A stretch of DNA of 24,559 bases from a virus. This document shows, piece by piece, positions 20,491 through 24,559 of the stretch (the stretch's first letter is position 1; each line of letters opens with the position of its first letter). The notes under the pieces were generated by a model. It ran no database searches, had not been told where the DNA came from, and was given only the letters and a program-made list of their open reading frames with translations. Both the position numbers and the translations under genes were made by a program. The stretch lies in UHGV virus genome UHGV-0135335. The stretch is one strand, 5' to 3'.

Positions 20491-21672
20491 TCAAAGTATG
20501 TAGCGCTTGTTTATTTCATCGGCAATTTTCTTAATCCGCTCATTTTCAGTAGCTTCATCCTTCAGCACGGTTCTGGCGAACGGGATCAGGGCCAAAATTT
20601 CGTTGGCGGGAATATCGTATTCCAAGCCTGTAGCCGCAGCACGGATGTAGTTGGTCACATCATTAATTTCTAAAAATGCCTCATCCACTGCTTCACCAAC
20701 CGATTTTTGCTGCTCGGCCTGGTGAGCTTCCAGCAGTTCCTCAATCTTCTGTACTAACGCTGGCGGTACGTTGCTCAGTTGGAAGGATACAGAATCCCCC
20801 TTGTACTTCGCTTTTATCCCTTTACCAAACAGGCGTTCACGCATTGCAGGTTTTACTGGTTTTTGCGCCACCTGGTGTAGCTGGTCAAGAATGTCATCGG
20901 TTTCGAGCTGTTCACCAGCACGCTTACGCTTGGCCAGATGCTGAGCAAACGCAAACATCGCCTCTTCATTCTCGGCATAGGCTTTTGCCAGTGCCTCACC
21001 AGCTCGGGCGCTCAGTTCGTTAGGGTTACGGAACAGGCTAATAATTTCGCGTGGTAGCTCTGCCGTCTTCATGCAGCGGACGATAATTTTTCGGGAGATA
21101 TTCTCAGCTTCGGCCAGCTTGCTGACTGTACCGCCGAACTCATTGGCCAGACGGCGAGCATAGCGCTTTCCGCGCTCGTAAGAGCTGGTCTGCCGGTAGT
21201 CGTTCCCGATCTGTGATAGCCAGGCCATTTGTTCGTCGTCCAGCTCGCCGACGAGAACGCGGTATTCAGAGCTGGTGTAAATGGCTGTCTGGCGGCGGCG
21301 GCTACCGTCGGCCACTTCAATAATGCCAGAGATTTTACGGCCAAATGCTGGGTTCTGTTGCCCGGACGCGAGGAATGACGGGATCAGATCATCCAGCGCA
21401 TCTTTTGTCAGCAGTGCCTGGTCTCGTTCATTTCCGCCCCAGACCATGGTCGCCTTTTCCACCATGTTCGCATCGACGGTTTCCAGTTTGAACGACACAT
21501 CCCGCCCACAGACCGGAAGCGTGATATGGTTCCCGGTCATCCCGCGGACGCGTTCACTGAGGTTAGCCACCGCCGGCGCAGCTGGTTTATGCGCGTCATC
21601 ATGGCGTGGGACCGCGGTCACAGTGTCCAGATTGATTTGTGGTGCGTTTTTCATTACTGGTGCGCGTTTCAT
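20491..21672 (-). CDS. sopB: Partition protein SopB (ParB family)
   Basis: From MKRAPV the product aligns closely with F-plasmid SopB as recalled (LPVCGRDV, GNERDQ, DALDDLIPSF, ADGSRRR, YRVLVGELDDEQM, AENISRKII). ATG overlaps the sopA stop (ATGA). About 70 aa longer at the C-terminus than F SopB. Confidence 0.85.
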   Translation of the reverse strand: MKRAPVMKNAPQINLDTVTAVPRHDDAHKPAAPAVANLSERVRGMTGNHITLPVCGRDVSFKLETVDANMVEKATMVWGGNERDQALLTKDALDDLIPSFLASGQQNPAFGRKISGIIEVADGSRRRQTAIYTSSEYRVLVGELDDEQMAWLSQIGNDYRQTSSYERGKRYARRLANEFGGTVSKLAEAENISRKIIVRCMKTAELPREIISLFRNPNELSARAGEALAKAYAENEEAMFAFAQHLAKRKRAGEQLETDDILDQLHQVAQKPVKPAMRERLFGKGIKAKYKGDSVSFQLSNVPPALVQKIEELLEAHQAEQQKSVGEAVDEAFLEINDVTNYIRAAATGLEYDIPANEILALIPFARTVLKDEATENERIKKIADEINKRYIL

Positions 21673-22838
21673 TTGTTGTTCTCCCAGCGAGTAGCAATCA
21701 GGCGATCGTAAATTTCCCGGCAAACCGGCTCCCAGATAGCGACGGCATTGCGCCAGGCGGTAGGCGTGCTACGTTGGTTTGCAGCCTGCTCAAACACGGT
21801 GCGCATGCGTACCTGGCCTTTACCTACTTCGTCTGTTACGCGGACAACTTCCTTCAGCACCATGCCGCCCCAGGCGTTGCGGATCTGCTCATCCATCCAG
21901 GCAGATTGGTTGCCGACGGCTGTGCTGTATTTAGTTACCAGAACGCGGACATCAGGTTCAAAGCCGCCAAGGTCGACGTTGGCCATCAGGTCGCGAAGCA
22001 TCGTGAAGAACTGAAGAGAGGAAACGTAGTCGTACAGTTCAGCTGGTGTAGGCACAACGATCACATCAGCAGCGCATACGACGTTTATTGTGCCTATGCC
22101 GAGGTTTGGGGCGCTATCAATAACAATCAGGTCGTAGCTATCCCAGACAGACTCGATAGCGGCGCGCAGAAGCAGGTGAGATGCCACCGGCAAGCGACCT
22201 TCTTTCTCCAGTACCTCGATCTCTGATTCGATGCGGTGAATGGCCAGACAGGACGGGATGATATCGAGGTTCGGCCAGCAGGTTGGCTTAATCGCGTATT
22301 CAGCGTTATCACGTTCGCCCAGGTAGTACGGCAGCAGCGTATCTTCTGCGTGGATATGCAGATCAGGGACGTAGCCATGGTACAAACTGGCGGTTGCCTG
22401 TGGGTCAGTCGCATCAATCAGCAGAACGCGAAGGCCCTGCAGTGCAGCCCATTGCGCCATATGTACGCTGGTCGACGTTTTGTATGCGCCACCCTTATGC
22501 GCGGCAATAGCCAGTACAACCGGCGATTGGCCTTCAGGTCGAGACGGACGGGTACCAAAGTGATCGCGCATGGAGTTGATTTGCTCGATGGTATAGCCGG
22601 CACGTTGTGGAACGCGACCGCGAGTCACCATATCAGCCGGCGGCAGTCGCCCACCATCTTCTGCATTGCGAATAGATTGCGGTGTAACACCGATCAGCTC
22701 TGCCGCTTCAGTAATGCCCCAGCGGCGAGTGATGGCGCGAGACTCAGGGCTATCATCGCCAAATTGGGCCTGTGCGATAGCCATTGTCATGGCATGGCCA
22801 CGAGAAATCAGTTCATCCAAACGCGATTTTAAATTCAC
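21669..22838 (-). CDS. sopA: Partition ATPase SopA (ParA family, Walker-type)
   Basis: Aligns along its whole length with F SopA as recalled (AAHKGGAYKTSTSVH deviant Walker A, HAEDTLLPYYLGE, VIDSAPNLGIGTINVVCAADV, VFEQA). GTG start at 22838 is preceded by GGAGAG with a 7-nt spacer. The track ORF extends further, to TTG 22913. Confidence 0.85.
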   Translation of the reverse strand: MNLKSRLDELISRGHAMTMAIAQAQFGDDSPESRAITRRWGITEAAELIGVTPQSIRNAEDGGRLPPADMVTRGRVPQRAGYTIEQINSMRDHFGTRPSRPEGQSPVVLAIAAHKGGAYKTSTSVHMAQWAALQGLRVLLIDATDPQATASLYHGYVPDLHIHAEDTLLPYYLGERDNAEYAIKPTCWPNLDIIPSCLAIHRIESEIEVLEKEGRLPVASHLLLRAAIESVWDSYDLIVIDSAPNLGIGTINVVCAADVIVVPTPAELYDYVSSLQFFTMLRDLMANVDLGGFEPDVRVLVTKYSTAVGNQSAWMDEQIRNAWGGMVLKEVVRVTDEVGKGQVRMRTVFEQAANQRSTPTAWRNAVAIWEPVCREIYDRLIATRWENNK

Positions 22839-22856
22839 TTTCGTACTCTCCGGTAA

Positions 22857-22896
22857 CTTTGCGTAAAAACAGTAAAGCACCAAAAAAGACGCAAAG
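22857..22896. promoter_or_regulatory. Putative sopAB promoter/operator: CTTTGCGT ... ACGCAAAG inverted repeat
   Basis: 8-bp perfect inverted repeat with 24-bp spacing, 20-60 bp upstream of the sopA start. The CTTTGC hexamer is recalled as the SopA autoregulatory site in F. Confidence 0.45.
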
Positions 22897-22951
22897 CAAC
22901 ACAATTTATGCAAAATCCCTTAAAAAAAGATTTTCACAATGACAATCACAA

Positions 22952-22990
22952 CCGTACATCATACGGACAAAACATCCGTACAATGTACGG
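22952..22990. promoter_or_regulatory. Paired palindromes CCGTACAtcaTACGG and CCGTACA-A-TGTACGG (putative operator)
   Basis: Two inverted repeats sharing the CCGTACA half-site, 9 bp apart, in the sopA-TA intergenic region. Followed by the direct repeat TTGATTGA (22994-23001 and 23007-23014). Confidence 0.4.
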
Positions 22991-23232
22991 CTTTGATTGA
23001 CAAAAATTGATTGATGTGTGACCATATGAAGGTTGCAACGAGCTTCAAACATGTATTTAGTCAGTAAGCAATCTATTCATTCATTAGTTAAAGTATTGAT
23101 TTATTAAGAAAACAATAGAGGAATATTAAATGATCAGAGGAACAATCAATCGCGGGGCGGGCAGATACCGATGAACAAGATAAGGAGGCAACCCACTTAA
23201 AAACCAATGTTTGATTTTTGGAGATTTTGATT

Positions 23233-23553
23233 ATGAGAAACACCTACGTAAGTGGTGGTTCCGCAAACGTTGCTTTGGCCGGTGCCAAAGACACGCGCGT
23301 CGAGCTGCGAACCAGCGTCGACATAAAAGAGAAGTTACGAGCAGCCGCTTCTCTGGCTGGGGTAGACATGAGTTCGTTTATTTTGATGGCTGCTACACAG
23401 GCGGCACAGCGCGCTATTGATGCAGAACGCATGCGCGTAGTGACCGCAAGCGAGTGGGCACAACTAAATGAAATCCTGAATACCCCTCATCAGCCAGGCG
23501 ATAAGCTGCGAAACCTGATGACGAGGGAACCTAGGTATGAACGAAAGTACTGA
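23233..23553 (+). CDS. Type II antitoxin, DUF1778 / TacA-like (ribbon-helix-helix)
   Basis: 106-aa product with the usual DUF1778 pattern (LR.S...EKL..AA...G...S.FIL.AA). GGAG then ATG 23233. Overlaps the downstream GNAT gene by 17 nt. Confidence 0.7.
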   Translation: MRNTYVSGGSANVALAGAKDTRVELRTSVDIKEKLRAAASLAGVDMSSFILMAATQAAQRAIDAERMRVVTASEWAQLNEILNTPHQPGDKLRNLMTREPRYERKY

Positions 23554-24091
23554 TGTAAAAATGCAGTTGGTGAAGTGCGGCCCAGAAACAGAAATGAAAG
23601 GGGTAAAAGCCTTCGACTGCGGGGATAGTGTAATTAACAAGTTCGTCCCACAGCTAAAGCGGCAGTGTGGTCGTGACAACATCAACGCATTATTACTGCT
23701 TGATGGGGATAAAAACTTAGTAGGTTTTGCCACGGCCACGCTTTATCAGCTGGGGCGGGAGAGCATCCCGGAAGACACTTATCCGTACGCGCTTCCGCCT
23801 GCAATAGCGGTGATGAAAATCCCCATGATTGCCATCGATAAAAAACTACAAAGGCAAGGCTGGGGGCACGATATTTTACGTGCAATTCTTGATTACAGCG
23901 TCGAAAGCGCTGATTTAGTGAGGGGCATCAAAGGGGTTTACCTCGATGCAAAAATAGAGGCTCGATCGTTTTATGAGAGCTTCGAATTTAGGGCTACCAG
24001 CGAAAGTGTTAGCGAGCATGGCACTATCCCAATGCTTATCCCTATGGATATCCTCCGCGAGAGTCAGAAGAGCTGGGAGCAGTCTGCATAA
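23537..24091 (+). CDS. GNAT-family acetyltransferase toxin (TacT/KacT/AtaT-like)
   Basis: 184 aa with an acetyl-CoA-binding-like segment IAIDKKLQRQGWGHDILRAIL. Gene order is antitoxin then overlapping toxin. Confidence 0.7.
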   Translation: MNESTDVKMQLVKCGPETEMKGVKAFDCGDSVINKFVPQLKRQCGRDNINALLLLDGDKNLVGFATATLYQLGRESIPEDTYPYALPPAIAVMKIPMIAIDKKLQRQGWGHDILRAILDYSVESADLVRGIKGVYLDAKIEARSFYESFEFRATSESVSEHGTIPMLIPMDILRESQKSWEQSA

Positions 24092-24121
24092 AAGCGGCTG
24101 ACGCAAAAGCCAGGAATTAAC

Positions 24122-24149
24122 GAAAGAGCCACCTTTGGGTGGCTCTTTC
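24122..24149 (+). terminator. Strong hairpin after toxin gene (terminator-like)
   Basis: GAAAGAGCCACC-tttg-GGTGGCTCTTTC, a 12-bp perfect stem. The T-tract lies partly within the stem. Confidence 0.5.
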
Positions 24150-24261
24150 GGTTCTGGGTAGCCAAATACAACGTACAGCGCGAAGCGCTGTGGAAGCATA
24201 AGATAAATCAAAACAGCACCAAAAGGTGCAATGTTGATATGAGTGGCTAAAAGCGACAATA

Positions 24262-24526
24262 CGTAACATTATGTTTTTAAATAAAAATAATTGAATATCA
24301 CATAAACTTAGTTAAGCGAATTGGCCATCATAACACGCTGATTCAATATCCTCTTTTATTCATTCAATATCGGCTGGAAATACGCCGTCATTAACGTAAC
24401 ATAATACAAATATGAAATAGTGATATTTCAGAATTCAATAACACTTCATATTATTGCATTAAAAAACCCGTCATCTCGCCGCACAACAATCATCGTAACA
24501 AATAATAAATAAATAACATCGTAACA
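24262..24526. repeat. AT-rich non-coding region with CGTAACA x4, CATCGTAACA x2, ATTCAATATC x2 and palindrome TGAAATA-gtga-TATTTCA
   Basis: Direct reading: CGTAACA at 24262, 24395, 24494 and 24520; ATTCAATATC at 24341 and 24363; palindrome at 24413-24430. No ORF of 60 aa or more. Confidence 0.5.
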
Positions 24527-24559
24527 CATTATAAATATCGACACATCATACTAATATCG

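Follow-up and report, generated by a model that had tools for sequence, protein, structure and literature searches.

The stretch analysed here is the viral genome UHGV-0135335 (24,559 nucleotides, referred to throughout as the window), and the element under study is a pair of overlapping genes close to its 3' end, which encode a DUF1778-family protein and a GNAT-family protein and which we read as the antitoxin and toxin of a type II toxin-antitoxin (TA) module. An earlier reading made from the sequence alone (below, the sequence-only reading) had placed such a pair at positions 23233-24091, and both open reading frames (ORFs) were found there on the plus strand. The two genes are as follows.

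23233-23553, plus strand: antitoxin gene, ATG start and TGA stop, 106 amino acids (aa), preceded by a GGAG Shine-Dalgarno sequence at 23220-23223
23537-24091, plus strand: toxin gene, ATG start and TAA stop, 184 aa, with a GAGGGAA Shine-Dalgarno sequence inside the antitoxin gene

The antitoxin gene comes first, and the two ORFs overlap by 17 nucleotides (nt) on the same strand. An independent gene caller called the identical two genes on the source contig (ENA ERZ1744281 NODE_343), which corresponds to the whole window. Three minus-strand ORFs lying over the pair (23244-23432, 23464-23739 and 23915-24259) were set aside, as they have no supporting evidence and were not called by the gene caller. 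The GC content of the module is 49.8%, compared with 54% in the structural genes of the window.

The phage-plasmid and conjugative-plasmid copies of the pair share the N-terminal antitoxin sequence MRNTxVSGGSA..., the Shine-Dalgarno sequences and the overlap from ATG to TGA. Across five loci the 17-nt overlap is kept together with the first 20 antitoxin residues, and the 107-aa antitoxins of loci L021 and L024 begin in the same way as the window antitoxin. The choice of the antitoxin start codon is supported by this conservation of the N-terminus and of the overlap. When the pair was compared with its relative from Kluyvera, the ratio of non-synonymous to synonymous substitution rates (dN/dS) was 0.11 for the antitoxin and 0.10 for the toxin, so that purifying selection acts on both genes. 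Given these low ratios and the conserved overlap, Shine-Dalgarno sequences and N-terminus, the pair consists of working genes rather than remnants.

The two genes have diverged unequally. Between the window (23233-24091) and the Kluyvera locus (L016, 4071-4929), 6 of the 106 antitoxin residues differ, while the toxins are 77% identical; the antitoxin is thus far better conserved between lineages than the toxin, the reverse of the usual TA pattern. Synonymous divergence (dS) against the same relative is 0.30 for the antitoxin and 1.21 for the toxin, and this inequality suggests a recombination breakpoint inside the module.

Family and clade of the gene pair

In a profile search of the two proteins against Pfam, both were matched above the gathering cut-offs. 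The antitoxin matched TacA1/DUF1778 (PF08681; E=2e-17, 63.3 bits against a cut-off of 21) over profile positions 1-78 of 80, and the toxin matched the GNAT family Acetyltransf_10 (E=1e-8, 35.6 bits against a cut-off of 23.6), with weaker matches to Acetyltransf_7 and Acetyltransf_1. Among the sequences of solved structures in the PDB, residues 17-97 of the antitoxin matched AtaR (6ajm_C, E=2.6e-9) and KacA (5zgn_A, E=6e-7), and the protein is predicted to consist of a ribbon-helix-helix (RHH) N-terminal part and a C-terminal toxin-binding part. The best match of the toxin was 7byy (E=6e-17), which is ItaT of E. coli HS, followed by KacT, AtaT, TacT3 and TacT2.

The fold of the toxin was examined with an AlphaFold2 model built from 22 homologues (predicted local distance difference test score, pLDDT, 81.5; predicted template modelling score, pTM, 0.77). 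In a Foldseek search with this model, ItaT (7byy) again ranked first (TM 0.82, E=5e-14), and ranks 1-38 were all DUF1778-associated tRNA-acetylating toxins (ItaT, AtaT, KacT, TacT1-3, AtaT2 and GmvT). GNAT proteins other than toxins appeared first at rank 39, with E>1e-6. Every sequence and fold test that was run agrees with the proposal of the sequence-only reading that the pair is a DUF1778 antitoxin with a tRNA-acetylating GNAT toxin of the TacAT/KacAT/AtaRT type. The family named in that proposal is right, but the closest characterised relatives of the toxin are ItaT and TacT_Sce, both of clade B, rather than TacT, KacT or AtaT. Taken together, we are confident that the pair is an intact type II TA operon of the DUF1778/GNAT family, belonging to clade B (ItaRT/TacAT_Sce-like), with its mechanism assigned by homology.

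The residues expected of such a toxin are present. The acetyl-CoA motif reads Q105-R-Q-G108-W-G110 and aligns with Q110, G113 and G115 of ItaT, and Y146 aligns with ItaT Y150, the general acid. The functional residues reported for ItaT (PMC7367177) comprise four in the pocket (V36, I37, F40 and M102), G115 as the glycine for acetyl-CoA and Y150 as general acid; in the alignment, V32, I33, F36 and M97 of the window toxin are identical to the four pocket residues. Across the 22 homologues, M97, G110 and Y146 are invariant.

The closest tested homologue is the toxin of TacAT_Sce (Bikmetov et al. 2022, PMC9177977). The window toxin is 61% identical, over 177 aa and with no gaps, to protein P0018 of Salmonella Cerro, which we take as TacT_Sce because its gene begins and ends in exact matches to the two cloning primers published for TacT_Sce (Bikmetov et al. 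2022, supplement). The antitoxins of the two modules are of similar size (107 aa in TacAT_Sce, 106 aa in the window), and their N-terminus and 17-nt overlap are alike. The modules differ at pocket residue 33, which is Leu in TacT_Sce and Ile in the window toxin, and in their carriers: TacAT_Sce lies on an IncI-type conjugative plasmid of Salmonella enterica serovar Cerro, between relaxase and Dot/Trb genes, whereas the window is a linear phage-plasmid. In a published classification, DUF1778-associated GNAT proteins form a single "true TA clade", within which clade B comprises ItaT, TacT_Sce and SonT; clade B toxins acetylate mainly Ile/Leu- and Val-tRNA, while those of clades C and D are Gly-specific (PMC9177977). 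Since the window toxin is 61% identical to TacT_Sce and has ItaT as its best PDB match, it is assigned by similarity to clade B.

ItaRT of E. coli HS provides the best solved-structure match to the window toxin by both sequence and fold, and its antitoxin ItaR is similar in size to the window antitoxin and 44% identical to it over 81 aa. ItaRT differs in being chromosomal, beside cyoE. The wild-type ItaT and ItaR sequences were taken from locus L022 (OR845150.1); this record, labelled 'Escherichia phage EC22.5-2' (UNVERIFIED_ORG), is E. coli chromosomal DNA with cyoE and itaRT and not a phage. The systems AtaRT, KacAT, TacAT1-3 and AtaRT2 (clades A and D) resemble the window module in operon architecture, in having a DUF1778 RHH antitoxin and a dimeric GNAT toxin, and in the catalytic Tyr, but in structural alignments their toxins are 15-24% identical to the window toxin, and their substrates are Gly-tRNA or broad. 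The K. pneumoniae clades 1-4 described by Goh et al. are less than 23.5% identical to ItaT and are therefore separate subfamilies.

Putative regulatory elements around the gene pair

The DNA upstream of the pair was compared across eight loci, namely the window together with L005, L016, L011, L019, L021, L023 and L024. They represent three phage-plasmid lineages, two IncI-type plasmids, a colicin plasmid, an IncFIA Klebsiella plasmid and an IncF Enterobacter copy whose toxin is 41% identical. The elements recognised in the window are as follows.

22952-22990: putative operator, made up of the perfect palindrome CCGTACAATGTACGG (22976-22990) and the imperfect copy CCGTACATCATACGG (22952-22966)
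22997-23025, plus strand: putative TA promoter, with -35 box TTGACA (22997-23002), a 17-nt spacer ending in TGT (extended -10) and the weak -10 hexamer GACCAT (23020-23025)
23130-23174, plus strand: leader mini-ORF 1, 14 codons encoding MIRGTINRGAGRYR, with its own AGAGG Shine-Dalgarno sequence
23171-23200, plus strand: leader mini-ORF 2, 9 codons encoding MNKIRRQPT, whose ATG overlaps the mini-ORF 1 stop codon (ATGA)
23184-23188, plus strand: start-less GGAGG inside mini-ORF 2, with no start codon 5-10 nt downstream
24121-24150, plus strand: terminator-like hairpin, a 13-bp perfect stem with a 4-nt loop, followed by CGGTTCT
24175-24191, plus strand: second hairpin

When the window was scanned for the palindrome with up to 3 mismatches, these two sites alone were returned, which on both strands gives 4 matches against 0.48 expected. 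The palindrome, or its CCGTAC/GTACGG half-sites, adjoins a -35-like box before the homologous TA pair in seven related loci (within about 35 nt in L023). TacAT_Sce carries the same CCGTACAATGTACGG palindrome upstream, and E. coli itaRT has analogous ATACGG-N7-CCGTAT palindromes around its own TTGACA. In the ItaRT system the complex, and not ItaR alone, represses its own promoter (PMC6125619). The CCGTAC/GTACGG palindromes are therefore proposed as the putative operator of the TA module, at which the antitoxin would bind. They were also considered as a centromere or operator of the neighbouring sop partition genes, and this was rejected, as the palindromes are still found with the TA pair on plasmids where it has no neighbouring sopAB.

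In five of the seven related loci the palindrome is followed immediately by TTGACA, the two IncI copies (L011 and L024) having TTGACT instead, and a TGn ahead of a -10-like hexamer can be read by eye in most of the related loci. We infer from these features that the TA promoter lies at 22997-23025. Together, the two CCGTAC palindromes make up a larger imperfect palindrome (22940-23002) with 28-nt arms that are 82% complementary, and its left arm holds a TTGTCA -35-like box facing sopA; the sop and TA promoters may thus stand back to back.

The leader between promoter and antitoxin gene is about 200 nt long in the window (23030-23232) and reaches roughly 370 nt elsewhere. A mini-ORF of 14-38 codons occupies the equivalent place in all eight loci. 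Its body is poorly conserved, while its end reads G(R/N)(Y/L)R near a (C/A)GATG motif in seven of the eight; L023 has RRYS and lacks the motif. A second tiny ORF is ATGA-coupled to the first in the seven closer loci. The GGAGG element is found 41-60 nt before the antitoxin ATG in every one of the eight loci, and it falls in different reading frames, so that a nucleotide motif and not a peptide is conserved. This arrangement of mini-ORFs and GGAGG recurs on four replicon types and down to 41% toxin identity; in TacAT_Sce it takes the form of a mini-ORF ending in GRYR together with GGAGG, whereas the itaRT leader is short (about 75 nt) and has neither the mini-ORFs nor the GGAGG element. A structured RNA in the leader was considered and rejected, as the fold of the window leader is not unusually stable (z=+0.8) and a search of Rfam returned no credible match to it.

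Downstream of the toxin gene, the fold of 24092-24200 is far better than that of shuffled sequence (z=-4.9). Both 3' hairpins are kept in the Citrobacter relative, and the first is also kept in Kluyvera. The functional unit is larger than the two genes and runs from the putative operator and promoter (about 22950-23025) to the terminator-like hairpin at 24121-24150. Operator, promoter and leader travel with the pair across phage-plasmid, IncI, IncF and colicin-plasmid contexts.

Linear phage-plasmid context

The window has genes for terminase, portal, capsid and lambda-like tail proteins, which share about 74% nucleotide identity with Klebsiella N15/phiKO2-like phage-plasmids. The partition genes lie directly upstream of the TA module and are divergent from it, in the gene order of N15 genes 27 and 28.

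20491-21672, minus strand: sopB, Pfam SoPB_HTH
21669-22838, minus strand: sopA, Pfam CbiA/AAA_31
22839-22920: sop regulatory region, with CTTTGC at 22857-22862 and GCAAAG at 22891-22896
24262-24559, plus strand: telomere-proximal AT-rich region with four CGTAACA repeats

A block upstream of sopA, GCAAAGCAACA, is common to the window and N15. Together with the CTTTGC/GCAAAG motifs, it resembles F-type SopA operator boxes, and these elements are separate from the TA operator.

The wider context was read from contigs that encode toxin homologues. On the contigs of the Citrobacter toxin (86% identical) and the Kluyvera toxin (77% identical) the gene order is unchanged: tail fibre, sopB, sopA, the divergent TacA-GNAT pair, a spacer, a TelK/TelN protelomerase and a RepA-like primase. 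The gap from the TA pair to the protelomerase gene is about 0.7 kb; additional genes widen it to about 2.4 kb in the Kluyvera relative. Two Citrobacter contigs (L006 and L010) are perfect palindromes whose centre lies about 510 nt beyond the toxin stop codon (L006 9000-9140), and such palindromic contigs are the signature of assembler read-through of a covalently closed hairpin telomere. The sequence-only reading had described the pair as sitting beside sopAB on a probable plasmid prophage. The adjoining sopBA operon, and the TelK, RepA-like primase and hairpin read-through contigs of the relatives, bear this out, and they identify the window as the left arm of a telomere phage of the N15 type, that is, a linear plasmid prophage.

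The position of the telomere could be defined from contig L003, whose TA pair is identical to that of the window. It runs 54 nt past the window end into a sequence in which ATTATTAAATATACGC is joined directly to GCGTATATT (L003 4166-4260). The telomere-resolution palindrome, formed by ATATACGC and GCGTATAT meeting at its centre, has a core identical to that of N15 telRL. As the extension in L003 shows, the end of the window lies 45 nt before the telomere-resolution centre, which is 513 nt from the toxin stop. The window end (TAATATCG) had been considered as the apex of the hairpin telomere itself, and this is wrong for the same reason. Transcription of the module runs towards the left telomere, at a distance of about 0.5 kb.

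Four CGTAACA copies are found within 265 bp on the telL side (24262-24526), and the window as a whole has 9 against 2.2 expected. In the Citrobacter relative (L005 9080-9250), TGTTACG repeats mirror them on the telR side, up to the start of telN. These repeats may be protein-binding sites flanking the telomere site.

The spacer between sopA and telRL, in which the module lies, differs among related phages. It is 460 bp long and holds no gene in N15, and it contains tiny ORFs only in Klebsiella phage KpLi5. A megablast search of 22900-24559 against the phage and plasmid collections gave no match. At the protein level these collections contain relatives, none of them above 62.5% identity and, in the phage collection, none above 33%. 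Pattern searches with the toxin alignment (viral and genome contigs) and with P0002 (viral contigs) gave pattern hits, none of which was confirmed as a relative. Given the gene-free spacers of N15 and KpLi5 and the lack of any phage-collection relative above 33% identity, the module is lineage-specific accessory cargo of the sopA-telRL spacer. In the Kluyvera relative the same TA pair is followed, before telRL, by a further ORF of 208 aa and by a gene for a RES-domain (toxin-like) protein, ahead of which lies an ORF of 44 aa (L016 5101-7000; L017 6727-8096). With such additions in Kluyvera, while the spacers of N15 and KpLi5 are empty, the sopA-telRL spacer behaves as a cargo hotspot.

Proposed mechanism and biological role

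By homology, the 184-aa toxin would act as an acetyl-CoA-dependent GNAT dimer in which Tyr146 serves as general acid, and would acetylate charged elongator tRNAs at the alpha-amino group. The likeliest targets would be Ile-tRNA and then Val- and Met/Leu-tRNA. The acetylated aminoacyl-tRNAs would be unusable in elongation, and translation would stop. The 106-aa antitoxin is expected to occlude the toxin with its C-terminal part, and the toxin-antitoxin complex, through the RHH N-terminal part, would repress the operon at the CCGTAC/GTACGG palindromes beside the -35 box.

Several points weigh against this picture and are considered together here. NCBIfam has no specific model for the antitoxin or for the toxin. 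The identity of the window toxin to the structurally characterised ItaT is only 30%, and pocket positions 32 (V/M/T) and 33 (I/L/M) vary conservatively among the close homologues; a preference for Ile over Val/Met is thus our best guess for the substrate, and a soft one because of this variation. The putative TA promoter was not called by a generic promoter scan, its -10 hexamer being weak, and the 3' hairpins, although likely to form a terminator, have a weak T-run and an uncertain efficiency. The long leader with its mini-ORFs is not accounted for by the standard type II TA model. The toxicity, neutralisation, substrate and stabilising effect proposed for this pair are read from its homologues. 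As to the role, the data fit stabilisation of the replicon, a purely selfish element and a defence function alike.

Among these roles we lean towards addiction, in which post-segregational growth arrest by the module would back up the SopAB partition of a low-copy linear prophage. The setting is that of a low-copy extrachromosomal replicon, an N15-like telomere phage with sopBA adjacent to the pair. N15 offers a partial parallel: it has a tad-ata-like type II TA module that is likewise carried by a linear plasmid prophage, but the toxin families are unrelated, that of N15 being HigB/RelE-like and encoded elsewhere in its genome. This N15 module reportedly stabilises plasmids, a finding that is said to go back to Dziewit et al. 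2007 (J Bacteriol 189:1983). A second parallel is GmvAT of the Shigella plasmid pINV, a DUF1778-GNAT module on a low-copy plasmid, which promotes the vertical transmission of this plasmid (PMC6519299). The fold matches of the window toxin include the GmvAT structures 9ilr and 9ils, although GmvT differs in belonging to clade D, in being Gly-tRNA-specific, in its identity of about 22% in the structural alignment and in being encoded on an IncF virulence plasmid. Given these two precedents, an addiction role is plausible.

The module might instead be primarily anti-phage, acting in abortive infection or superinfection exclusion: on infection by another phage the labile antitoxin would run out or no longer be made, and the toxin would halt translation before the invader completes its cycle. 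It is prophage-borne and probably expressed in lysogeny, and telomere-flanking spacers are known to carry cargo that benefits the lysogen, such as the lysogeny-expressed TelA-ImmA bacteriocin-immunity cassette between repA and telN in Klebsiella telomere phage NAR688 (PMC12042878). The RES-domain gene added at the same locus in the Kluyvera relative points in the same direction, and other TA toxins that target tRNA are known to act as effectors in defence. The sequence-only reading had also raised abortive infection, and this suggestion gained no support: PADLOC gave 0 families for both proteins at E<=0.1, a full-text literature search found no report of DUF1778-GNAT pairs in phage defence, and the closest homologues are mostly on conjugative or mobilisable plasmids beside transfer and maintenance genes, the classic setting of an addiction module. 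We therefore regard a primary role in defence as unlikely. That the pair is a selfish hitch-hiker, which is hard to lose or excludes elements with a cross-reacting module and brings no measurable benefit to the phage-plasmid, seems to us unlikely as well, though somewhat less so than a role in defence. Its occurrence on many unrelated replicons, complete with operator, promoter and leader, indicates that the cassette moves autonomously; N15 and KpLi5 manage without the module; and the dS values of 0.30 and 1.21 suggest recombination within the module. Against this, the position of the pair is kept under purifying selection in three diverged phage-plasmid lineages (window, Citrobacter and Kluyvera), which fits a benefit without proving one, and the mechanism of a selfish element overlaps with that of the addiction model.

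A more radical alternative denies that there is a TA pair, and takes the GNAT protein for an ordinary metabolic or antibiotic-modifying acetyltransferase and the DUF1778 protein merely for its transcriptional regulator. The GNAT superfamily is indeed vast, the Pfam matches are to the generic Acetyltransf_10, Acetyltransf_7 and Acetyltransf_1 only, and public annotations say no more than "GNAT family N-acetyltransferase". However, the nearest solved proteins, by sequence and by fold, are exclusively TA toxins; TacT_Sce, with its 61% identity, acetylates aminoacyl-tRNA in vivo (PMC9177977); the pairing with DUF1778 and the 17-nt overlap are conserved; and the published classification groups DUF1778-associated GNAT proteins in one "true TA clade" (PMC9177977). 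An ordinary acetyltransferase is thus highly improbable.

With the pair taken as a clade B TA module, the family, the mechanism, the clade and even a tested homologue of 61% identity are already known; what is new is the membership of this pair and its location in a telomere-phage lineage that is absent from the phage and plasmid reference collections. The result is mainly a gain in annotation, an apparently functional ItaT/TacT_Sce-type module being recognised as lineage-specific cargo in N15-like telomere phages whose hosts are of Citrobacter and Kluyvera type, and it leaves the current understanding of the DUF1778-GNAT family unchanged. It nevertheless extends the small clade B of GNAT toxins with non-glycine specificity, provides a candidate for how low-copy linear prophages are kept or exclude competitors, and defines a whole mobile cassette (operator, promoter, leader, two genes and terminator) that can be cloned as a unit.

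Two more speculative ideas, which we regard as improbable, may also be mentioned. The leader of clade B modules, with its 5' untranslated region of 200-400 nt, ATGA-coupled mini-ORFs and start-less GGAGG, could be an undescribed translational control leader. Separately, telomere-site spacers could be cargo hotspots in which TA modules help related phage-plasmids to compete with or exclude one another instead of simply stabilising their carrier. A further observation concerns IS605-family OrfB/TnpB (Cas12f-like) genes (L005 11426-12607; L016 9512-10693; L019 1-558; L020 1485-2666): such a gene lies beside telN in the phage-plasmid relatives, and on the Atlantibacter colicin plasmid another is separated from the TA pair by a few kb.

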